A stretch of 64,000 nucleotides of DNA, taken from contig NC_089430.1 of NCBI RefSeq assembly GCF_026210795.1, positions 248,001 to 312,000 of the forward strand, read 5' to 3'. The notes under the pieces were generated by a model. The model was given only the letters and a program-made list of their open reading frames with translations. It was not told the origin of the DNA and did not search any database. How positions within the stretch are numbered: the stretch's first letter is position 1; each line of letters opens with the position of its first letter. The DNA is from Rhizophagus irregularis. Taxonomy: Eukaryota. Below are positions 7,671 through 58,470 of the stretch, one piece after another. The position numbers and the translations under genes were made by a program.

Positions 7671-8777
7671 CTTGATACTAGTCTTAAATACAAAATTATC
7701 TTTTAATAGTCTCACTCTCCTTTATAAATAACGCAAAATATAAGGCAGAGCTGTTCCTTCGTCAATTATGTAAATTTGGTTTGATTTTAAGAGTTAAAAA
7801 CAAAGCTTTTAAATATAATAAAGAAGGAATGAATGGAATATTTTGCGCCTAACCGTATTAATTTTTTTATCGTTCAGCCTAATAGGATCATGCAGATTTT
7901 CACTGATATTTTTGTTAAGCATATAATGAATGATTATACATAATTGATAATAAGGGGGAATAAAAAAAATGATGTAAATGAAATTTTAATAGGAAAGTGG
8001 TTTTCAAAATGGTACGATCTTCAAAATAATACAACAAAAAAATTCGAAACCAATCATAATTTTAATTTTGTTCACGTGACAACGAACGAAAAAATTGCAA
8101 AACCTTCTTTAAAATATAATTGTTGTTATAATTAATGCAATTACGCTATTTTTTTTTGTAAAATAAAGCGTATATTTTTAGAAATAATCAGCATAACATA
8201 TGAACGTGACATAATACTGGGAAAATTGTATTAAACTTGCTGCGCCACGAATATTTATGCGATTTAGAATGTCATTATTATTATGCTCTTTATTGAAGAA
8301 ATTTTCGGAACGATTACGGAGTACAGGTTTTGATTATTTGTAGATCACCTCGCACAAATTTGTATAACGAGATAGTTATTGATTGGCATTTCAAAATAGG
8401 TTGTATATGGTTCCTCGCACAAATGATTGCGAAGGATTTCTTCCCAAATACATAAAGACCGAATACTATTATAGTATCGTTAAAAGGTCGAACCGCTATA
8501 AACGGATATTTGTTTATCAATAAATTGATGTTCGTATATTTCACATGATAATATGTTTCACTTAAATCTTGTTAAATATGTAATTATTGTTGATTATCAT
8601 GTCAGATGATCAATAAAGATATAAATAAACAGACTAACCAATAACGTCAATAAATGAAAATTCAAAAACCTTATCAACGAGACTACATTTTTAAAAAAGA
8701 ATTATTTTATTTTATTTTTTCTTTCTTTTTTTTTTCAAATAAACAGCAAAACAATTATAATCATTATATTATTTACC

Positions 8778-11348
8778 ATGTCTCAATATAATGATGTTGA
8801 TTATACAACAGATATCGATTGGCTTGAAGAAGCAATAGCTAAAAAATACTTTAAATATTATGAATTCGAGAATTTTAGCAATATTCAAGAAATTGGTACT
8901 GGAGGTTTCGGAAAAGTTTTCCGCGCAAGTTGGAAAAGTTCAGGACAATATTTAGCCTTAAAAACTTTTTTTAATTTTGATGATGCTACAATTAAAGCAA
9001 TATCTCGTGAGGTAATTATATATATATATATATATTTGTAAGTCATTGATATGATTAGTTATTTTTCTACATATTAATTTTTAATTCAAATTATTTAGTT
9101 AAAACTTCAACGTGAAGTTGATTTTCATAATAATATTATTCGTTTCTTTGGAATTACAAAATATGAGCCAGGTAATTATCACGTACTCCCATTGATCATT
9201 TATCGTCCTTTAAGGACTTTATAATACTATACAAGCTCAATAATTAATGAAGTTTTTTTATAATATTATTAGAAAACAAAAATAATTTATTAAACTTGAA
9301 CCGGTATTCATTAGTAATGGAATATGCCGATAATGGTACGCTTCGAAAATATTTGGGGAAAAATTTCGATAATATTACTTGGAAAGATAAACTAAATATG
9401 GCTTATCAACTTGCCAGTGCCGTTTCATGTTTACATAACGAAGGTATTGTGCATAGAGACCTGGTAATTATTACAAATTATTATAAATGTTTTTTATCTA
9501 TAATATTTGCATGTATATATTTATTTATATTATTCTTTTGATAGCACTCCAATAATATATTGGTTCTTAAGAATAAGATTAAATTGGCCGATTTTGGATT
9601 ATCAAAGAGTATTGAAGAAACGTCTAACGTGCAATCTTCAAAATTATTTGGTGTTATTCCTTATATTGATCCAAAAAGATTAATGAATCAAAAATATAAA
9701 TTAAATGAATTGAGTGACGTATATAGTGTTGGCGTGTTATTGTGGGAAATATCCAGTGGTAAACAACCTTTTTGTAGTGAAGGTGAAGCATATGATATTG
9801 GGTTAGCTTTTGAAATTTCACAAGGTTCTAGGGAAGAACCTATTCCTGATACGCCTGAGGCTTATGTTACGCTTTATACCGGTAAATTTTAATTTTTTTT
9901 TTCCTTATGCGAAAAAACATTAAATCCTTAGAATTTATTTAATCTAAAATTAACCTTCTTTCTTATTAGAATGTTGGGATAAAGAACCAATTTTTCGTCC
10001 GACCATGAATGAAGTAGTCGATCAATTGGGAGCAATTATGTATTCAATTAGCGAAATAAACGAATATAATACTGTAAGTGGACGACAAAAAAATGATTCA
10101 ATTACTGGTGAAATTGAAAATTGTGTTGCTTCTGATGATTTAATTGCATGTAAGAAAATGGAATGTTCCAACAAACAAGATATACAAGATGAACAAGATG
10201 AACAAGATGATAAAAGTGATGAAGAATTAATAAATAATTCAAATTCTTCATTTATAAAGCCATTAATAAGCGTAATAGCTGATGAAATGGCTAACCTAAT
10301 TTTTAATGAAGAAAAAAAATTGGAAGTGTCTACTATTTGTCGTTATTGTGAAGTTTATAATGTCAAATCAGAAGAAGTTTATGAGTGGTTATTGGAAAAC
10401 CAATATGATTCAAATTATATTTTTTTACTCGGAGTTTTTAATCATTTAGGAATTGAAACTAATGCTAATAAGGAAAAGGCGGTCGAATTATATCAAAAAG
10501 CGGCAGTCTTAGGACATAGTGTAGCGCAGTATAATCTTGCTTGTATGTATAAAGAAGGAAAAGTTGTATGTCGAGATAATGAGAAAATTTTTAACTTACT
10601 TGAAAATTCAGCTGAAGGAGAATACTTAAACGCAATAAATATGTTAGGAGAGTGTTATTATAAGGAAATCGGAACTGATATTGACAAAGAAAAAGCTTTT
10701 GAGTTATATCAAAAAGCAGCGAATTTAGGGCATAGTGTAGCTCAATATAATCTCGCACAAATGTATAGAAAAGGAGATGGTGTTGATAAAGATGAAAAGA
10801 AAGCTTTTGAATTATTTGAAGAATCTTCTAAAGAATGTTTAAACGGAAAGTTTATGTTAGGGTACTGTTATAGTAAGGGAATTGGAACTAGTGTTGATAA
10901 GAAAAAGGCAGCCGAATTATATCAGCAATCTGCAGATCAAGGACATGAGTTAGCTAAAAATAATCTTGCCATTTTATATAAGAGAGGAGAAGGTGTTAAT
11001 AAAGATAGTGACAAAGCTTCCGAATTATTTAAAGAATTATATCTCAAAGGATACTCAAATATATACGGTACAATATTAGATTGTTGTGATATTGATGATG
11101 ACGAGAAAGGGCAAGTTAAAAGTTTTTTTAATAATAAGTGTGTGAGTTTAATCAATACTTTAGTTAGTGATCTGAGTGACGAAAAACAAGTTGAAATTTG
11201 TCAGGCTGCAGCAGAAGTTGGACAAAAGTTGATTAAATTCGATTCTGCTGAAATTGTTGATAATTATAAAACTTGTGAAGGGATTATTAAAAATATAAAA
11301 AATGTGTTCTATAGGAGTGCGGATGAAATTAAAAAATTTAAGAATTAA
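8778..11348 (+). CDS. Tyrosine-kinase-like protein kinase with C-terminal Sel1-like repeats; exons 8778-9011, 9099-9171, 9273-9463, 9545-9881 and 9970-11348
   Basis: GTGGFG, ALK, HRDLHSNN, DFG and SDVYSVG kinase motifs; the GT-AG introns are phase-consistent; Sel1 repeats such as AQYNLAQMYRKGDGVDKD. Confidence 0.93.
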
Positions 11349-19299: not shown

Positions 19300-21099
19300 T
19301 TTTCTTTTTTTTTCTTTTTTTTTAGAAAATTTAGAAAATTTAGTAAAACTTCGTCGCTCCATTAATTAATTATATATTGTTTTAAATTCCAAATGAGGTT
19401 TGGTTAGGAATCGGTTCAATCATTTTAAAAAGGAAATTTTGGAGGCTAGGCTATCGTTAAATCTATTGGAATTGATAAATAAATTATCGATCAAAAAAAA
19501 TCTAAGCCTCGGCTTAGTATAAGATCGACTCATTAATTGTCGTCATAATTACGTATGTCTCGTGATTTCTTGCGGATTCAATGGATGCGATCTACATGTT
19601 TTTGGCTCATTCTAAACAATCGCCGACCAGCATTACCTATATAATGCCGGCCCTTAAGAAATGCGTAGAGCTAAATAGTAAATGTGTGCCGATCTATATA
19701 ACTCGGGTCCTATTCACTCACGTGATCCACGGCGCAGTTGGCCGGTTTATCATCACTCAAATAGAAGAATATCCGGATTTCACAAAGAGGTAGTAGTAGT
19801 CTACAATCTCAGGATGTAAATAATGAAGTGAACTTAAATGTGATAATTGATCGAATTAAACAAAAATCTATTAGAAGATCGACAACATTCATAGCAAGTA
19901 GCAAGGGATTCAGCAGATGAAAAAAATAAATCCTGTCTTCTTTCGAAATATTCATAAAACATCTTTATTATTTAGAAACTGAACCACGCGAAAAATAAAT
20001 TGAACATTTGTATTTTGTACATGTAGTAAAGTATTATACTAGTATTATCGATAACCAAGATAGCCTTCTTTACTGCGAAAAAGAGTCCTTTACCATTAGG
20101 AACGTACTCCTTATTTTTTTTGTAAGCAATAGTATACACTAAATGAATAAAGAGCGTGGTTGGGCAGCAAGACGCTCAACGTTGAGCTCTGCTTCCTGGA
20201 AAGTTAACTTTTTTGTTATACTTGTTCCTCTTTGGAATGGATTAAGTACAAATGGTGATGTGCGTTCGTCAGATAATATTATAGGTAAGTTCTCCTTGAA
20301 TGATATTAAACAGAATTTACGTAATGGGCGTATATCAAAACAGATCATATTATGCTTGTTGGGAAGTTACAAAGTAATATATTCACACGTTTATTTTCAC
20401 TAGATACCATCGATACTACTATTTTAATTAATTTCAACAAGAGCTTGAAGAATATACAGTATTAACAACAGAAGGGAAATACTCGCATATAATGATATAA
20501 AGAGAAAACATAGCATAATTATTTGTACGAAAATTTCATGTAATTGGTTTCTTATGTTATTTCTTTTCTTAGCAAAAAGTTAGCAACTACTATGTTATAA
20601 CATAATTATGTTTGCGAAGTTTTTTATATTCATTGTTAACCAGAGTCCATACTCAAGACTGATATACAAAAAATAGTACAATATCCAAGGGTACGCTTTA
20701 CGTATCATGCAGTGTTGGTAACTCATACAAAGCATAACAGGTACGGCCATAGTCATAATCTCTATTTTAATAACCTTTGTTGTCCGATTTACCATTACAA
20801 TGATACCCAAGGGTACGCTTCACGTATCATGTACATGGAAACTATCGTATGCTTTGTACAGAAATTTTGGAACAAAGAGTTCACTAGATATAGACTAGTA
20901 CCAGCAAATATTTGATAGTCCACAAATGTTACTTCTTTTTAGTAAATTTAGTTTTGTATGAATAATAGACACTACCGAATAAAGATAGCGAGTTTTTCGC
21001 AATGGCTGTTCCTAAAATATTCTTTCACTTGTGTAGAAGTAATAAACATCTTGAATGGGTAGTTATTCAACAGATTTCTAATGAACAAGTTCGTGTGGT

Positions 21100-23900
21100 T
21101 GTAAATTCAACTACTGAGGAGTAACGTTTAATAATATCATGCTGTATTAACAAATGTACGAGATAGCCCATGTTTATTTGAAAAAAAATTTGCCATGAAG
21201 TTTTATCACGAACGCTGAGATTCTGATAATGATATATTATAACACGGGATATCACACTCTCGCACATTAATAAAAATGCTCAATATGATCGAAATATTAT
21301 CATGTACAAAAAAATTAGGAAAGAATGTTAAACTTTCTTGTTCTAGTGTTTCGTGGACTTTTCTTGTGATCACACATGTATAGTACACATGTATAATACA
21401 CATTGAAGGAATTAACGTTTTAAACATTTTTTTTCTCCTAGTAAATAAAACAGGAACCCAGTAGTATACATGATAAAGAGTTCATATTAATGATTTCACT
21501 CGTAAATAATAAATCTCAATAATAAAATAATTTTAAAAATATTTTATTTAAGTATAAGTAAATTTATAAACAATATTATATAATACAGTAACGTTTCACG
21601 GCGCAGCCGTGAAAATCATGATATTTATTCGACACATGAAATAACTCTTTTATCTCATGGAGACTAACGTCCAGTGATGGGAAAGAGGGAAAGAGTGGGA
21701 AAGGTATAAATAAATTATAAAAACACGTGAACATGAAAAATATTATCAGAAAAATTACAGGCATGAATATATCATCAAAAAAATCACTGGCGACCAATTA
21801 GTAAACATGAGATAAATAATTTTAACTGATATTTTTAAGTTATCACTGATTATTATATTTCCTTTCCTGTGATGAGGCTACACGTATATCTGGTCTTGAT
21901 TGTCTTCTTTTCCAATAAAAGTATATAAGAAATGAAGCCCCTATCAAGGCAAGCACGATTGATAAAATTATAATTCCTATGACAAGATATCTGTTTTGAG
22001 TACTTAGATTTTTGTATAAATTTTGATCTGGAAGATTCGGACGATCTGAAAGATCTGGATTAAACTCATTAACCCATTTGTAATTAGATTTATCGTACGT
22101 GTCTAAAATAAATACTTCATTTGATGTGGGTAGTGGTAATTCATTATTAGTTTTTCCGAAAGCCACGAACATATAATAACCGACCAAAGTAGCCGTATGG
22201 TAAAAACGTGAAGGTGGTGGATCTATAGCATTCACATTTGACCATGTATAATCATATGTATCTAATATCACAAGATCATCGCTTACAATACTACCACTAC
22301 CAGTATAACCTCCATACACGATAATACGACCATCTTGAGCTATATAAATTAGAGAACAATTTAATATATTACCCATTTTATTAAATTTAATTCACAACAA
22401 TATATAATTACTCAGAACGGCAGAATGGTATGCACGAGGTGTTGGCGAATAACCAGTGGCTTTCTGAGATATCCATGTATCATTATTTGTATTATACAAA
22501 AGTAGCTATTTTTTTTTTAAAAAAAAATTATCAGTAAATATACAATTTAGACCCTCAATTAATCAATTAAACGGTGCCGATTTACCTCTGACATTTTCAC
22601 AAATCCTCCGTTAGGTAATTTACCACCTATATAAACAATATAACCGTTTGGCAATAAAGTACCCGTATGATCGTACCTTCCTTCTTGAGCATTAATGTTA
22701 ACATGTTCCCACACCAGCGTCGATGTATTCAAAATATCCATATAATTATTAATTTGGTTAATTTGAAGTCCCGGATTGAGTCCACTAAATCTATACATTT
22801 TTCCAGTTCTAACATCACAAACGGTCTGGCTCTGGCTGTGAAAATTATATTGAGGTGGATTGATGGTCGTAGAGATATTCCATTGTTGTAAACTTGTGTA
22901 AGTGTAGACTGTAGCAGTATCTGTTCCTTGTTCTCCATTATACAAAAATAGAGAATTATCAAGTCCACAGTTTGAAAAGGCGCTCCATGTATGTGCTGGA
23001 ATATTTTGCGATACGGAACTAAGATCCACCCAAGGTAATTTATCTCCTGCTCCGACTTTAAAGGGTTTCTCGACGTCTAAATAATAAAATTCTTTGGAAA
23101 GTGTTGATTCTTTAAAATCATCCTTGTATTTGGGAAAGAGACCACCTGTAAAATATATTCTAGAATATGCAAATACGGCGCTGTGGCCCCAAACTGTGTT
23201 GTTAGGCGTGAAAGCCAAAGTGGACTCATTGAGATACAGGCAAATAACGATTAAGCAGAAGAAAAGCATTATCAATAATCATAAGGGAGTTGAAAATTAC
23301 AACGAGAGACTTGTTTTAATATTAATATAATGATACAACGAAAAATACATATGGATATTTTCGATGCTAGAATTCGATATTTATACAAACTAAAAAAATG
23401 CCAGGACGATTAATAATTTGAAAATCAATGAACTACTTTGTTAAGAAAAAATAATAAAGTGAATGTTTCAGGAATGTATTTCGGATTTTTATTTACATTC
23501 ATTTCTTACGTAAATGTATCCTTCTTATACTTATTATACATGTACGACCAACCCATTTGCTAATTATGATCGACAAGTAAAGTTTATTTTGTAAACAAAT
23601 ACGAGGATCATTTCCCGGAAAATTTTCGAAAGCAATTTTTTGAAAGAAATTGAAAATTTTTTTATAATAAAATACGTGGATTAACTTAAAGCGTTAGTAT
23701 GTTCCATATATTATTTAAGCCCTTGTTATATAATACAAAACATTATTTATTCTAGACCAAGAAGTTTATATAATCGGAATGGGATTTCCAATATAGTCAC
23801 ACAATAGATGATTAGACGCAGTAATTGTGTTCAGATATCGGCTATACACAAAAAAAACCGGAATTAAACACCATGACGATCTAACCAAATTATATGTAAA
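21100..23900. repeat. Segmental duplication unit 1, paralogous to ~51725-55265
   Basis: Gene, introns and both flanks are shared (for example gaagtaacgtttaataatatcatg and ccatgacgatct). Confidence 0.9.
21843..23275 (-). CDS. Kelch/galactose-oxidase-type beta-propeller single-pass membrane protein, copy 1; exons 23275-22586, 22505-22412 and 22339-21843
   Basis: Signal peptide; kelch motifs GHSA..YFTGG, RYDHTG..YIGG, RAYHSA..VYGG and RFYHTA..AFG; C-terminal transmembrane helix followed by KRR; phase-consistent introns. Confidence 0.9.
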
Positions 23901-33458: not shown

Positions 33459-36400
33459 TTAATTTTCATCTATTTTAATATCTAAATAATTAAATATTAA
33501 ATAAAATTAATTTCACATAAATAATTTTTTTATATCATAATACATACATACCTAATGACCCCAAATCCTTAATTATATAATCATTCAAATCTTCACTTAC
33601 TAGCATTTCATTTGCTTTAGCTTGTGAATCTTCAAGAATTTCATTCAATTTTTTACTAGTAAAATCAAATAAGCGACTTGTATAACATACTTTAGGATGA
33701 GATTTAGTAGCAAGATTGTTACGTCCAATTGGTGCATTTATAAATGCCATAATATTGCTTTTTAATTCTTCATTTACTTCATTATTATAAGGACGGAAAA
33801 TCCAATTCTTAATAACTTTTTCCACTTCTGAAGTAGATGGCCTTTTTAATGGATCTTCGTTCCAACATTTTTTCATTAAATCTACATAGCATTGTGGAGT
33901 ATTTTCAATAATTTCAGGACGTTCACCTTTACAGATACTTAAACTAAGTTGAATATCATGTGCTCTATCATTAAATGGTGGTACTCCAGATGTAAACTCC
34001 CACATAATCATTGAAAAGCTATATATATCACTAGCTAGAGTATAAGATTTGCCTCTTAAAACTTCAGGAGCCATAAATGGCATAACACCATAAATATCAT
34101 ACTTTTCCAAAACCGATTTTACAGGTTGACATAATCCTAAATCACTAATATAAATTTTATCTTCGTTTTTATCATTATGATTTAAAATATTACCATCATG
34201 AAAATCACAATGAATAAGATTTTTTTCATGTATCTTACTAAGTCCAGAAATAATATGGTACAACATAAATAATTTTTGTTTCCAATTATTTTCAACTATT
34301 CTTGTTAAATTTTCTCTTAAATTACCTTTATTTGCATAATCCAATACTACCATATTTTTTGAAGTATTTGGATCTTCTGTAAATCCATAAAATTTAATAA
34401 TATCATTACTTGAACAATTTTCATGATATTCCCACTACAAAAAATTATAATAATTTATTAATATAAATTATAAAATAAAAAATAATATACTATCAATATA
34501 TCATACTTCTTTCAAAAATTCATTTAAATTTTCATTTATATTCTTGTGACATTTAAGAATTACTTTTTTTTCTTCATTATTCTTTAACCAAATAGCTTTG
34601 TATATAGTACCAAACCCTCCTTCATTAAGATATTCAACATTTTTAAATTTGTTATAAGGAATCCATTTTAATTTTTTTTCAAGAATAAAATCATCTATAA
34701 TTGTATTTCCACTTTTCCCAAACCTATAAATTTAGGTAATTAAAATTATATTATAGATTGTATTATAATTTACACTAAAATAAATTATTACTTACTCTAA
34801 AATTTAAATAGGAATTTAATGTAATATAAGTCTTAGTTTTTAGATAAATACATATAATAACTTATAATTTACAACTTACCAACTAAAGTAACAGATATTT
34901 TTTAAATGAAAGAATTCAATTAACAAAGAAATATTATATAAAATATATAACAATAAATAGAATTAAATAAATAAACTATGGCTTACAAACTAAAATAAAT
35001 TACAAAATAATTTTTTAAATAAAGAAATTAGTTAGTTTAAATTATATATAAATATTATAACAATAAGTAATTATAGAATTAATTAAATAACTTACTCCCT
35101 ATATTATTTAATAATTTTTTAAATAAAGAAATTAGATAGTTTAAAATATATGTAAATATTATAACAATAAGTAATAATAGAATTAACTTACTCCCTATAT
35201 TATTTAATAATTTTTTAAATAAAGAAATTAGATAGTTTAAATTATATATAAATATTATAACAATAAGTAATAATAGAATTAAATAAATAACTTATAACTT
35301 ACGATCTATTAAATAAAGAAATTGATTAGTTTTAATTACATGTAAATATTATAACAATAAGTAATAATAGAATTAAATAAATAACTTACCCGCTATATTA
35401 TTTAATAATTTTTTAAATAAAGAAATTAGTTAGTTTAAATTATATATAAATATTATAACAATAAGTAATAATAGAATTAACTTACAAACTATATTATTTA
35501 ATAATTTTTTAAATAAAGAAATTAGATAGTTTAAATTATATGTAAATATTATAACAATAAGCAATAATAGAATTAAGTAAATAAACTATGACTTACCAAC
35601 TAAAATAAATTACAAAATAATTTTTTAAATAAAGAAATAAGTTAGTTTAAATTATATGTAAATATTATTACAATAAGTAATAATAGAATTAAATAAATAA
35701 CTTACTAACTATATTATTAAATAATGTTTTAAATACAGAAATTAGTTAGTTTAAATTATATGTAAATACTATAACAATAAGTAATAATAGAATTAAATAA
35801 ATAAACTATGGCTTACCAACTAAAATAAATTACAAAATAATTTTTTAAATAAAGAAATTAGTTAGTTTAAATTATATGTAAATATTATAACAATAAGCAA
35901 TAATAGAATTAAATAAATAACTTACACTCTATATTATTAAATAAAAAAATTAGTTAGTTTAAATTATATGTAAATATTATAACATTAAGTAATAGAATTA
36001 AATAAATAACTTATGACTTACTAACTATATTATTTAATAATTTTTTAAATAAAGAAATTAGTTAGTTTAAATTATATGTAAATATTATAACAATAATTAA
36101 TAATAGAATTAAATAAATAAACTATGGCTTACAAACTAAAATAATTACAAAATAATTTTTTAAATAAAGAAATTAGTTAGTTTAAAATATATGTAAATAT
36201 TATAACAATAAGTAATAATAGAACTAAATATTAAATAACTTATAACTTATGATCTATTAAATAAAAAAATTAGTTAGTTTAAATAAAGAAATTAGTTAGT
36301 TTTAATTATATGTAAATATTATAACAATAAGTAATAATAGAATTAAATGAATAACTTACCACCTATGAAATAATTTTTTAAATAAAGAAATTAGTTAGTT

Positions 36401-38840
36401 TTAATTATATGTACAGTAAATATTATAACAATAAGTAATAATAGAATTAAATAAATAACTTACTCTCTATATTATTTAATAATTTTTTAAATAAAGAAAT
36501 TAGTTAGTTTAAATTATATGTAAATATTATAACAATAAGTAATAATAGAATTAAATGAATAACTTACCACCTATGAAATAATTTTTTAAATAAAGAAATT
36601 AGTTAGTTTAAATTATATGCAAATATTATAACAATAAGTAATAATAGAATTAAATAAATAAACTACTATGGCTTACCAACTAAAATAAATTACAAAATGA
36701 TTTTTTAAATAAAGAAATTAGTTTAAATTATATGCAAATATAATAACAATAAGTAATAATAGAACTAAATATTAAATAACTTATAACTTACGATCTATTA
36801 AATAAAAAAATTAGTTAGTTTAAATAAAGAAATTAGTTAGTTTAAATTATATGTAAATATTATAACAATAAGTAATAATAGAAATAAATAAATAAACTAT
36901 GGCTTACAAACTAAAATAAATTACAAAATAATTTTTTAAATAAAGAAATTAGTTAGTTTAAATTATATGCAATTATTATAACAATAAGTAATAATAGAAT
37001 TAAATAAATAAACTATGGCTTACCGGCTAAGATAAATTACAAAATAATTTTTAAATAAAGAAATTAGTTAGTTTTAATTATATGTAAATATTATAACAAT
37101 AAGTAATAATAGAATTAACTTACTCCCTATATTATTTAATTAAAGAAATTAGTTAGTTTTAATTATATGTAAATATTATAACAATATGTAATAATAGAAT
37201 TAAATAAATAACTTACCCTCTATGAAATAATTTTTTAAATAAAGAAATTAGTTAGTTTTAATAACAATAAGTAATAATAGAATTAAATAAATAACTTACC
37301 ATCTATGAAATAATTTTTTAAATAAAGAAATTAGTTAGTTTTAATTATATGTAAATATTATAACAATAAGTAATAATAGAATTAAATAAATAACTTACGC
37401 TCTACATTATTTAATAATTTTTTAAATAAAGAAATTGATTAGTTTTAATTATATGTAAATATTATAACAATAAGTAATAACAGAATTAAATAATAACTTA
37501 CTCCCTATATTATTTAATAATTTTTTAAATAAAGAAATTAGTTAGTTTTAATAACAATAAGTAATAATAGAATTAAATAAAAAACTTACACCCTATAATA
37601 TTTAATAATTTTTTATTTTTTAATAAAGAAATTAGTTAGTTTTAATTATATGTAAATATTATAACAATAAGTAATAATAGATTTAAATAAATAACTACCA
37701 TCTATAAAATAATTTTTTAAATGAAGAAATTAGTTAGTTTAAATTATATGTAAATATTATAACAATAAAGTAATAATAGAATTAAATAAATAACTACCAT
37801 CTATAAAATAATTTTTTAAATAAAGAAATTAGTTAGTTTAATTATATGTAAATATTATAACAATAAGTAATAATAGAATTAAATAAATAACTTACCCCCT
37901 AGTACATTATTCAATATTTTTTTTAAATAAAGAAATTAATTAAATTATATAATTAATATAAAATTGTAAATATAGATATCATATAACTTACACCCTGTAG
38001 TATTATTAATTATTAATTAGTTAGGTATAAAGATAATATAAGTGTATTTACTGTAAATTATATACATTACTTACAATCTAGTTATTTAAATTAAGAATAT
38101 AATTAGTTGAATTATGTAAAATATTAAACAAACAAATATAATATATATTGTAACTTACCATCTATAATATAATTATTAAATAGTTATTTAAACAAAGAAT
38201 TTAGTTATTGAATGTTATATAGAATAAATAAAGTTAAAGGACTAAAGGTTTAAATAACTGATAACTTACCAACTACAGTATTATTAATCATTAAATAAAT
38301 TATTTAGTTATATGGAATACAATAAAAATAATGAGTAATTCATTATTATTTAATTATATTAACTTACGAGCTAAATATTTAATATAATTTTTATATAATA
38401 TAGTTAGCCTAAATTATATTTGTAGTATTTGAATTGTTTATAAATAAAACTTAATATTTCAGCTTGTTTGATATACCTTTAGATTCCTTGGTGTCACTTC
38501 CTTCAAATTCCTCAATACTACTACTTTCAAATTTTTTAGTACCACTTCCCTCAAATTCTCCAGTTTCACTTTCTTCAAATTCTTCTATATTACTGGAAAC
38601 TAGTTTTGTTGTATTACAAATTTGGTTTAATAATATTTGATTATTTACAATGAAATTTTTTTAATAAATAAAAATCTTAATATTTCAACTTTGTTTTGTA
38701 TATTATATTTACCTTCAGGTTCTTTGACATCACACAAAACTAGTTTTATTATATTGCAAATTTGTTTTAAAAATTTTGAATAATTCTAATTTATAATTAT
38801 TCATGTTATAGGCTTTACCTTTATCAATACGTTGGTCCAT
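33459..38840 (-). CDS. Tyrosine-kinase-like kinase with a micro-exon-encoded N-terminal segment; exons 38840-38819, 38739-38713, 38599-38477, 34 3-nt exons (38370 to 34880), a 1-nt exon at 34796, 34723-34507, 34434-33552 and 33481-33459
   Basis: The spliced ORF is continuous: MDQRIDKVLCDVKEPEVSSNIEEF...KESK-ALDDWWDDGWKHEGTVYLGESVFKFVIVSDRRIFE-FGKSGNTIIDDFI...EGGFG...VILK...HCDFHDGN...SDLG...APE...SDIYSF. All introns are GT-AG. Confidence 0.85.
34790..38400 (-). repeat. Tandem array of about 36 intron-plus-micro-exon units (~80-120 bp each)
   Basis: Each unit reads cttac-NNN-ct(a/g) on the + strand, which is YAG|NNN|GTAAG on the minus strand; most also carry ttagttag (CTAAC branch point). Confidence 0.95.
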
Positions 38841-47942: not shown

Positions 47943-49173
47943 TTACTTAGTGGGGTAATCACGTTTGTACGCCTCATCAGCAGCCCAGCATAAAATTTCC
48001 ATTCTGTTTAATGGAGGTGTGTTCACTTCATTTTTAAATGAAATTTCCATTGGTCTTGCGTTCAAGGGAGGTAAATGAATTCTCTCTTCGCTTTTGAATG
48101 AAGTTTCCATCGACGGTCTTGCGTTCAAAGGAGGTAAATGAATTCTCACTTCACTTTTGAATGAAGTTTCCATTGGTCTTGCGTTCAAAGGAGGTAAATG
48201 AATTTTCTCTTCGCTTATGAATGAAGTTTCCAACGGTCTTGCGTTCAAAGGAGGTAAATGAATGATGTTCTCTTCACTTTTGGGGGAAGTATCCATTAGT
48301 ATTGCATTCGAATCTCCATTAGGACTTCCTTTTCTTTTCCTTGAGTTCTCGGTTTCCGATTTCGCTTTAGATATTTCTTGAATTCTTTTTCGTATGCTCC
48401 AAAAGTTTTTAACCTTATTTTCGGAGCGCAATTTCTTGAATTTCGTTTTCATCAAGGGAATTAATTCTTTCCAACGTATCGTATCTCCTTGTGGTTTACT
48501 TTCAGCCCATTGGACAATAAATGATTTTTCATCCTCACTAAGAGGTTCAAAACAAACTAGAAAAATAACGTTCAGTGAAGATAGAGAAGAAGAATATTCA
48601 TTTGAAAAAAAAATTCGTTAAATCAAATTATAAGAATAACATTAAAAGAAAATATAAAGTTATACTTACGATCTGTGTTGAGTATATTTCTCCAACTAAA
48701 TTATAACAGAATCAAAATACATGAATAAATGAATAAATAATAAATTAATTGTAAATAACAGTTTTCTTACCGTTGACGAATTTGTTTTGAAGTATAATTC
48801 GTACTATATAGTTTATTAATATTTTTTCTAACCTTCACATATGGGTTGGATGACTGACCAAACTTTTTCATAAATTCTTTAATAGAATTGTCAATCTGCT
48901 CATTGAAGGGAGCATATCTATTTTGTGGTATTTTTACTTGTAACTCGTCTTTCAAACTAAATTGTAAGCAAATAAAACAAATAAATAATTGATTAATTAA
49001 TAAATTGTAAAATAATGATTTACTTACTATTGACGGACTTGGTTTGAAGTAAAATTCGTAGCATATTGTTCATTAACTTTTTCACAAATTTTTTCACAAA
49101 AGTTAGGAAGATGTCCCAATACTTTTATAAGCTCTTTGATAGTATTATTAATCTGCGGAGTGAAGAGTGACAT
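47943..49173 (-). CDS. Myb/SANT-domain transcription factor with four C-terminal ~20-aa repeats; 4 exons
   Basis: Spliced SKQIRQRWRNILNTDLCFEPLSEDEKSFIVQW...IRWKELI...RSENKVKNFW (R2R3-Myb-like); IHLPPLNARP x4. Confidence 0.82.
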
Positions 49174-52420: not shown

Positions 52421-53846
52421 TTAATTCGCTTCCTGTGACGAGGGTACAAGCATATCTGGTCTTGATAGTCGTCTTTTCCTATAAAAGTATATAAGAAACG
52501 AAACTCCTATCAAGGCAAGTACGATTGATAAAATTATAATTCCTATGGTAAGATGACTGTTTTGAGTTTTTAGATTTTTGTATGAATTTTGATCTGAAGG
52601 ATATGGAAGATCTGAAAGATCTGGATTAAACTCATTAACCCATTTGTAATTAGATTTATCGTACGTGTTTAAAATAAATACTTCATTTGATGTGGGTAGT
52701 GGTAAATCATTATTAGTTCTTCCGAAAGCCACGATCATATAATAACCGACCAAAGTAGCCGTATGGAAAAAACGTACAGGTGGTGGATCTATGGCTTTCG
52801 CATTTGACCATGTATAATCATATGTATCTAATATCACAAGATCATCGCTTACAATTCTAAAATCACCAGTATAACCTCCATACACGATAATACGACCATC
52901 TTGAGCTATATAAATTAGAGAACAATTTAATATACTACCCATTTTATTAAATTTAATTCACAACAATAAGATTAATGATATAATTACTCAGAACAGCAGA
53001 ATGGTATGCACGAGGTGTTGGTGAATAATCAGTGGCTTTTTGAGATATCCATGTATCATTATTTGTATTATACAAAAGTAGCTATTTTTTTTTAAAAAAA
53101 AAAGAAATAATCAGTAAATATACAAGTTAGACTCTCAATTAATCAATTAAACGGTGCCGATTTACCTCTGTCATATCTGCATATTCCCCGTTAGGTAATT
53201 TACCACCTATATAAACAATATAACCATTTGGTAACATAGTACCCGTATGATCGTACCTTCCTTCAGTGTTAACATGTTCCCACGCTAGCGTCAATGTATT
53301 CAAAATATCCATATTATTATTATTATTGTCTGGTTGAAGTACCGGATTGATTCCACCAAATCTATACATTTTTCCAGTTCTAACATCACAAACGGTTTGG
53401 CTCTGGCTGTGAAAAGTATGTTGAGATGTATTGGTGGTCGTAGAGCTGGTCCATTGTTATAAATTTATGTAAGTGTAGACTGTTACGGTACTTACGGCAT
53501 CATCTGGTTCTCCAATATACAAATATAGAGAATTATCAAGTCCACAATTTGAAAACGCGCTCCATGCATGTGCTGGAAGATTTTGCGATACGGAACTAAG
53601 ATCCACCCAAGGTAATTTATCTCCTGCTCTGACTCTAAAGGGTTTCTCAACGTCTAAATAATAAAATTCTCTGGAAGGTGTTGACGGTTCAAATTTATCC
53701 TTGATTATGGGAAAGATACCACCTGTAATATATATCCTAGAATTTGCAAATACGGCGCTGTGGCCCCAAACTGTGTTATTAGGCGTGAAAGCCAAAGTGA
53801 ACTCATTGAGGCACAGGCAAATAACGATCAAGAAGAAGAAAAGCAT
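52421..53846 (-). pseudogene. Kelch membrane protein, copy 2, with one in-frame nonsense codon
   Basis: Same exon structure as copy 1; TAA at 53459-53457 where copy 1 has CAA; the frame continues intact afterwards. Confidence 0.85.
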
Positions 53847-54699
53847 TATTAATAATCATGAGGGAGTTGTAAATTACAACAAGAGGTTTGTTTTAATATT
53901 AATATAATGGTATAACGAAAAATACACATGGACATTTTTGATGCTAGAATTCGATATTTATGCGAGCTAGAAAGATGCCAAGACGGTTAATCATTTGAAA
54001 ATCAATAAACTACTTTTTTAAGGAAAAATAACAAAGTGAGTATTTTAGTAATGTATTTTCGGATTTTATTAACTTATAATTATGATCGACAAGGCAATAA
54101 CACATGTATTTTGCATAATTCATTTCAGTAAAGTTTAATGTTGAAAACAAATATGGGGATCATTTCCAGTCAGAGACCCGGAAAATTTTCGAAAGAAGAA
54201 ATTAAGTAATTGAAAATTTTTTTTATGCATAATCGAAAATAATCTAAATAATAAAATAATAAAAATACATGGATTAAAAAGTGTATCTAAATGAAAAATA
54301 TATTATAGAGAGAACTTGGTGTTTCTTTAAAGCAGTACTATTGAGAGTTTGACAAATTCTTATTGATTGTTATAAAGCGATAGTATGTTCCATTTTCACC
54401 AATGTGTATGTATTGAATACAATAATATATCATACATATATATCCTGGCTAAGTAAAATTTTACTAGGATCGGATAAATGATCGGCCGATAGGCCGATCA
54501 TGTTTCGATTCTAAAATAAAAATTTTACTATTCCAAATTAGCCATGATATAATTGATTTATCCCCTGCCATTTACACAATAGTAAGTGTTTTATAGTATA
54601 TCGTGAGTATAAATATAGTATATTTTATTGTTAAATCTTATTTTCTTTCGCTTTGTTTTTTTTTCATTTTAAGTTTTTAAAAAAATGATTAAATTTTAA

Positions 54700-57635: not shown

Positions 57636-58470
57636 CTTCAGAGCGTATTTTGGGCAGTTTAGTCAAAGTAAATCGACTTCTTATATTAATTGAAAGTTTT
57701 TTGGCGAGTAATAATCTGTTCGAATATTGGTTTTCATGAAAATACAGTTAATACTTGAAGAGTTATTCACGTTTTTCACAACGGTACTCATTCACGAATT
57801 TTATTTTTTCCGTTTTGTCACTTCAGAGCGTATTTTGAGCACTTTAGTCAAAGTAAATCGACTTCTTATATTAATTGAATGTTGTTCAGCAGTTGATAAT
57901 CTACTTGGATATTAATTTTCACGAAGGTACAGTTAATACTTGAAGAGTTACTCACGTTTTTCACAACGGTACTCATTCACGAATTTTATTTTTTCCGTTT
58001 TGTCACTTCAGAGCGTATTTTGAGCACTTTAGTCAAAGTAAATCGACTTCTTATATTAATTAAAAGTTGTTCAGCGGGTCATAATCTGCCTGGATATTAA
58101 TTTTCATGAAGGTACAGTTAATACTTGAAGGGTTATTCACGTTTTTCACAACGGTACTCATTCACGAATTTTATTTTTTCTGTTTTGTCACTTCAGAGCG
58201 TATTTTAGGCACTTTAGTCAAAGTAAATCAACTTCTTATATTAATTGAAAGTTGTTCAGCGAGTTATAATCTGTTTGAATATTAGTTTTCATGAAGGTAC
58301 AGTTAATACTTGAAGGGTTATTCACGTTTTTCACAACGATACTCATTCACGAATTTTATTTTTTCCGTTTTGTCACTTCAGAACGTATTTTGAACATTTT
58401 GGTCAAAGGAAATCGACTTCTTTTATTAATTAAAAGTTGTTTAGCAGTCAAAATCCAATTTTCATGAAAA
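57636..58470. repeat. 185-bp tandem repeat, about 4.5 copies
   Basis: cttcaga(g/a)cgtatttt at ~57637, 57821, 58006, 58191 and 58376. Confidence 0.92.

Follow-up and report, generated by a model that had tools for sequence, protein, structure and literature searches.

A spliced array of three-nucleotide exons, closed by a one-nucleotide exon, ahead of the kinase domain of a Rhizophagus irregularis gene

The kinase gene and its microexon array

The analysis concerns one locus on the minus strand of the 64,000-nt stretch of Rhizophagus irregularis DNA presented above (hereafter the window), whose sequence is AT-rich and eukaryotic. At this locus, a kinase gene contains an array of 35 units of the form acceptor-NNN-donor, running from 38370 to 34880 with introns of 80-115 nt and lying between an acidic exon that ends at 38477 and a kinase exon that starts at 34723. 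All 35 triplets are 3-nt exons of symmetrical phase 1-1, and 28 of them fall in 34980-37800, the interval singled out in a preliminary description of this DNA. Upon re-reading of the sequence, the units, the three acceptor-flank classes and their triplets are exactly as listed there. The triplets are also G-rich in an AT context, as described, with 34% G and 43% GC compared to 12% GC in the introns. The motif YAG-N(0-9)-GTRAGY occurs 43 times in the whole window, and 32 of these matches are 3-nt units of the array. The unit donors are GTAAG in 32 cases and GTAGTT in two, with the GT lost in the remaining one.

The exons flanking the array match kinase families alone (PF07714/PF00069), and the catalytic motifs (Gly loop, Lys, HCD, DLG, APE) are present; judged by its sequence, the kinase domain is tyrosine-kinase-like, of the PF07714 family. 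The product of kinase exon B, taken as 33538-34434, is 99% identical to an R. irregularis kinase. This large exon has 1042 relatives at E<=1e-50, and the named relatives among the matches listed (the best 120 of 1042) are all from Rhizophagus. Domain, catalytic motifs and the many Rhizophagus paralogues place the predicted protein with the expanded glomeromycotan PF07714 kinases. Kinase expansion in Rhizophagus is described in passages of PMC6123716 and PMC10234402, the latter giving a repertoire of 2,533 kinases for R. irregularis; micro-exons go unmentioned in the exon, intron and kinase passages of these two papers. The N-terminus of the protein is acidic and hydrophilic, a Pfam search with exon 3 returned no match, and the array contributes 106 nt of about 1.4 kb of coding length, i.e. 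about 8%.

The introns preceding units 2-6 are diverged (best identity to any other array intron 0.69-0.78), and most core introns carry a branch-point-like motif 25-48 nt ahead of the acceptor. The reading frame stays open whether all 35 units are included or the one with AT in place of the donor GT (36251..36253), which is probably skipped, is left out. The underlying G>A change at window position 36250 follows a C-ending triplet (CpG context), as expected from methyl-cytosine decay, and would silence one unit with no frameshift. Exon 3 leaves the frame in phase 1 and the kinase exon takes it up in phase 2, so the 1-nt exon at the end of the array is needed to join the two.

Splicing of the array in RNA reads

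The splicing evidence derives from two raw polyA runs (X23 and X24) of one study, carrying the same species label and mapped at 99% likeness, with 30 letters of each loose read end visible. Behind 34723, loose ends were obtained from three reads of X23 and six of X24, with an agreement of 1.0; before 38477, from 18 reads of X24, with an agreement of 0.96. In both cases the read ends reproduce the genomic joins in 30 of 30 letters; at 38477 these letters comprise the first ten triplets, and at 34723 the final ten together with the 1-nt exon. Hence, 20 of the 35 units are seen spliced, including the core units at 37800-37502 and 35819-34987, and the upstream introns are also supported by reads (joint 38599-38713, loose ends at 38741). 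The array is a spliced, intron-rich coding region, and its triplets are real exons. As the preliminary description had proposed, codons straddle the junctions, phase 1 being confirmed by the reads. An alternative parsing, with triplets as whole codons and a last exon of 5 nt, is contradicted at this locus by nine reads. A plain minisatellite or an assembly artefact is ruled out, since a public RNA run shows the unit order at both ends. The features of the locus are collected in Table 1.

Table 1. Exons and array features of the kinase locus (window positions)
Feature	Position	Strand	Basis
Coding exon 1: start codon, 22 nt, phase-1 donor	38819..38840	-	sequence; matches loose ends behind 38741 (X23 3 reads, X24 9 reads)
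Exon 2, 27 nt	38713..38739	-	joint 38599-38713, a 113-nt intron, 4 and 13 reads
Exon 3: acidic Glu/Gly/Ser repeat, phase-1 end	38477..38599	-	X24 depth about 19; 18 loose ends at 38477
Outer microexons 1-6, 3 nt each	37896..38370	-	sequence; joined in order in reads
Core: 28 three-nt units between near-identical introns	34987..37800	-	best intron identity 0.87-0.98
Two units with variant donor GTAGTT	37699..37800	-	both present in mRNA reads
Unit with donor AT for GT	36251..36253	-	outside visible read letters
Last 3-nt exon	34880..34882	-	diverged intron before it (0.78); matching context in L002
One-nucleotide exon (A), phase 1 to 2	34796..34796	-	9 reads, agreement 1.0; acceptor-A-donor context in L001, L002, L003
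Kinase exon A: juxta-kinase helix, Gly loop, Lys motif	34507..34723	-	PF07714 match, motifs, junction reads
Kinase exon B: catalytic loop HCD, DLG, APE; lower end approximate	33538-34434	-	PF07714 E 1e-33; motifs; database match

The agreement of 0.96-1.0, over few reads, suggests that inclusion of the units at both array ends is mostly constitutive. This bears on a somatic or transcript-level diversifier, in which combinatorial cassette skipping, or targeted editing or mutation, would produce many variants per mycelium. Such a device would be in line with the frame-neutrality of all units, with the absence of stops after most skips and with the precedent of the Tuber nank genes, and an agreement of 0.96 at the 5' end would still allow for minor isoforms. 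Nevertheless, the 18- and 9-read consensus corresponds to full inclusion of ten units per end, and no array-skipping joint is listed in the X23 and X24 reads at a threshold of three reads; this explanation is considered very unlikely. Targeted ongoing change at the triplets, which the preliminary description had raised, is likewise disfavoured at the array ends, where the reads agree with the genomic order.

Two further observations concern the core. At window position 35248, an intronic A>G is found in nearly all covering RNA reads and is absent from the X1 contigs; it would represent a strain or paralogue difference. In X1, the summed contig depth is often 10-40 thousand over the array core (34900-37900) compared to 1-12 thousand on the kinase exons, and two placements are possible for 4624 contigs, which hints that the array intron is widely repeated, the depth not being a copy number.

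Variable triplets and near-identical introns

Column statistics were calculated for 29 core units and 96 intron columns. The three triplet columns have entropies of 1.83, 1.15 and 1.89 bits, against an intron mean of 0.23, and 3 of the 96 intron columns exceed 1 bit; the mean pairwise distance is 0.66 for triplets and 0.09 for introns. Both measures confirm the pattern originally noticed, i.e. near-identical introns around hypervariable triplets, and the triplets are clearly more variable than the other unit positions. The contrast is readily apparent in two pairs of units, in which 2 and 3 of the 3 triplet bases differ within 101 and 92 nt of identical flank (AGA vs CGG, identical over 53+48 nt; TTT vs GGA, over 53+39 nt). 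On the 15 shortest edges of a 28-edge spanning tree, which link the closest sister units, differences occur at 17 of 45 triplet sites and at 14 of 986 flank sites, a ratio that is overstated by the selection of these edges on flank likeness. The changes at triplet positions 1-3 on the sister edges number 7, 4 and 6, respectively. In the true frame, positions 1 and 3 are residue-changing and position 2 is the wobble base; diversity thus peaks where the protein is altered, because the entropies of positions 1 and 3 exceed that of the wobble. Collectively, the triplets appear far more changeable than the introns, which fits selection on the encoded residues. In this respect the earlier proposal of selection at the triplets is partly supported; its diversifying character is not separated from intron conversion around retained residues. 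An excess of transversions (9/17 vs 9/47 in introns) was considered as a sign of triplet swapping and dropped, being confounded by base composition.

The open frame itself carries less information. It is true, as previously pointed out, that no triplet starts with AA or GA and that those starting with AG never follow a T-ending exon. However, the stop-free order cannot be taken as a signal of selection, because shuffled orders are also stop-free (P = 0.26-0.38): over 200,000 shuffles, the proportion is 25.8% for the 35 units and 37.6% for the 28 units in 34980-37800. Pooled base shuffling leaves 6.4% stop-free. An open frame is simply expected because the gene is expressed. Of the 35 single skips, only 3 produce a stop, as do 1 of the 35 duplications of a single unit and 15 of the 595 skips of greater length. 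Stop avoidance was also rejected as the cause of the AA/GA gap, since Lys and Glu are encoded here with triplets that begin with AG, and these are just as prone to form a stop.

A different regularity concerns the middle base. Codons ending in A dominate in this genome, yet A is absent from the middle position of the array triplets, at which the 35 units have 22 T, 12 G and 1 C. Based on the amino acids and on 3015 reference window codons, 11 A-ending codons are expected (P 2e-8, or 3e-5 on 18 distinct codons). Avoidance of NAG, a second acceptor, would account for part of this lack, and descent from few founder units may account for the rest. The rule is probably not absolute, as the middle base is A in 31 of 316 cases in the paralogue models described below.

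These features could also arise if the introns were constrained by splicing, 3-nt exons needing intronic signals, around a drifting and weakly constrained linker. The branch-point-like motif of most core introns and the intron core common to the distant relatives L002 and L003 are consistent with such a constraint, and the lack of a middle A suggests splicing rules acting on the triplet. On the other hand, the five outer introns are spliced at 69-78% likeness, indicating that near-identity is not required, and drift cannot yield 2-3 differences in 3 nt amid 90-100 nt of perfect identity. A drifting linker is considered very unlikely.

Paralogues, comparable systems and proposed role

A metagenome scan returned six loci, three of which (L001, L002 and L003, all short) show the acceptor-A-donor context, the other three being unrelated or devoid of upstream DNA. 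In L002 and L003 a 3-nt unit also precedes the 1-nt exon. Compared to the window, their array-intron stretches are identical at 50/52 and 90/102 positions and their kinase-exon DNA is 82-83% identical, whereas the last, non-array intron matches at 55/86 and 58/93 only. This likeness of the array introns would fit either exchange between loci or selection on the intron core. When the RNA reads are mapped at 93% likeness, 125 and 184 loose ends accumulate at 34722 with an agreement of 0.63-0.65, dominated by paralogues, and the paralogue consensus parses as another triplet string followed by the same 1-nt exon. The 1-nt exon therefore appears to be common to a kinase subfamily, as judged from L001-L003 and the paralogue reads. 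In L003 (100-170), the unit immediately ahead of the 1-nt exon holds, by eye, a short internal duplication, in which one copy has a weak donor and the other a lost acceptor; jointly they could form a 36-nt in-frame exon.

Among 191 database gene models, 82 include the kinase exon start: 20 use a 5-nt exon, 8 read the intron end into the donor of the 1-nt exon, 9 start at the exon and 45 behave otherwise. The public gene models of this kinase subfamily are wrong at the N-terminus, with the array region misread. Ten models from R. irregularis and R. diaphanus contain strings of 19-48 residues, all different, with a mean identity of 23%, and six of the ten kinases are 70-81% identical to that of the window. 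The strings resemble triplets read as whole codons, with T or G as the middle base in 278 of 316 cases against 1014 of 2500 in the kinase bodies, a figure made partly circular by picking by eye. Paralogues in both species appear to carry different triplet strings, and the array layout is shared by an expanded paralogous family, according to the paralogue reads, L001-L003 and, indirectly, the gene models.

It may be argued that the array encodes a fixed, old peptide under purifying selection, in which conversion homogenises the introns only and tracts that overwrite triplets are purged, so that the contrast reflects conservation instead of diversification. This explanation predicts the same difference between introns and triplets; the reads of a public run match the window order exactly at both ends, and the diverged outer introns imply a layout older than the homogenisation of the core. 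It is nonetheless unlikely, because related triplets share a flank class and several exact copies exist among the units, indicating recent duplication of whole units, and because the paralogue strings differ in length and sequence far beyond the kinase domains.

A heritable cassette system, in which units of intron plus triplet are duplicated, lost and exchanged and peptide selection keeps the triplets different, is considered moderately probable. It is supported by the 30/30-letter read match, the contrast between triplets and introns, the tolerance to skipping and the differing paralogue strings. In this system, unequal crossing-over or gene conversion via the shared intron core would homogenise the introns within and between paralogues, and the frame would be preserved whichever unit was gained or lost. 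Each triplet would fix parts of two adjoining residues, so that swaps would generate new residues in a variable segment of roughly 36 residues predicted ahead of the kinase domain. The putative role of this segment is that of a partner- or ligand-specificity element in a large family of signalling or nonself-sensing kinases.

Several points weigh against the cassette system. One allele of the locus was compared, none from a known other strain, and positive selection was judged indirectly. The locus-specific reads all come from two runs of one study; the 15 middle units (37401 to 35926) fall outside the visible read letters, and no junction was obtained from the contig runs X2 and X5 at 99% likeness. 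The read depth of exon 3 is about threefold that of the kinase exon, and a near-identical paralogue may therefore have contributed some of the 5' reads. The missing middle A points to a nucleotide-level constraint or a founder effect, both outside the reach of peptide selection. The ten paralogue models were picked by eye and are unverified and wrong-frame. Finally, the evidence consists of sequence and reads, whose bearing on protein function is not direct.

Elsewhere in the window, a second 3-nt candidate at 48675 proved to be the end of an ordinary exon, and a TAG directly before GTAAGT at 20282 (+) is probably an ordinary donor after an AG-ending exon rather than a zero-length exon. A second kinase gene (8658-11348, +) has Sel1-like repeats (by eye) and ordinary exons; the motif scan of the window found no microexon run ahead of it. 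Two similar gene copies about 30 kb apart (21843-23278 and 52421-53855, minus strand) contain repeated beta-strand motifs and a C-terminal hydrophobic stretch, and presumably encode a kelch-like membrane protein. A 185-nt x 4.4 tandem repeat lies at 57636-58455, and a 60-nt coding repeat in a Myb-like gene at 48020-48309.

Among known systems, the closest in layout are the Tuber nank genes, cited in passages of PMC4986451 and PMC13449251 as an expanded family with tens of tandem 3-nt mini-exons, extensively alternatively spliced and proposed as a diversification device. The Rhizophagus array likewise comprises tens of 3-nt exons in tandem, with splicing seen for 20 of the 35 units, in an expanded fungal paralogous family. 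Unlike nank as described, it lies in a glomeromycotan kinase of the PF07714 family instead of a NACHT-ankyrin NLR, and inclusion at both ends appears to be mostly constitutive. The array has phase-1 split codons and a closing 1-nt exon, the comparison with nank being one by description. The same passages describe the Podospora NWD/HNWD and ANK/TPR NLRs, with near-identical repeats, concerted evolution, exchange within and between paralogues and few hypervariable positions. The array resembles these HIC (high internal conservation) repeats in combining near-identical repeats with hypervariable positions; however, the conserved part is there a coding WD/ANK/TPR scaffold and here the intron, so that the whole coding output consists of the variable positions, with no WD, ANK or TPR domain. 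The array is like nank in layout and like the HIC repeats in evolution, and is a member of neither.

The micro-exon genes (MEGs) of Schistosoma, according to passages of PMC4350168, have runs of very small symmetrical exons and a fast-evolving product; they are secreted, with signal peptides, most of the coding region in micro-exons and alternative splicing. The array shares the very small symmetrical exons (35 units, 3 nt) and differs in its intracellular-type kinase host, in the small share of coding sequence in the array and in its short repeated introns. For the 1-nt exon, comparable cases are one in Arabidopsis (PMC4674806) and one in Fusarium CYP621A, called in 2026 the second example and the first in a fungal gene (PMC12940212). 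As in these cases, the Rhizophagus exon is needed for the frame, missed by annotation and confirmed by reads; unlike them, it follows 35 three-nt units and appears to be subfamily-wide. No description of such arrays in mycorrhizal fungi was found among the top literature matches for broad queries, subscription papers and supplements lying outside this search.

Reads support the accurate splicing of at least 20 consecutive 3-nt exons, ten at each end, together with a 1-nt exon, which makes the array a test bed for the handling by the spliceosome of exons too small for exon definition. The array also reveals a hidden, fast-changing segment in part of the R. irregularis kinase repertoire, and probably allows the fungus to change a short stretch of protein residue by residue. 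Together with the Tuber case, this suggests a repeated origin of single-codon exon arrays in fungal genes for signalling and cell death. A broader, family-wide diversifier based on one-residue cassettes is put forward tentatively, as unlikely: in dozens of kinase genes, the common intron would serve as a recombination handle, and 3-nt exons swapped within and between loci would write new recognition peptides for nonself or endobacterial sensing in a fungus without observed sex, convergently with Tuber nank. If true, it would constitute a receptor-diversification system in mycorrhizal fungi.

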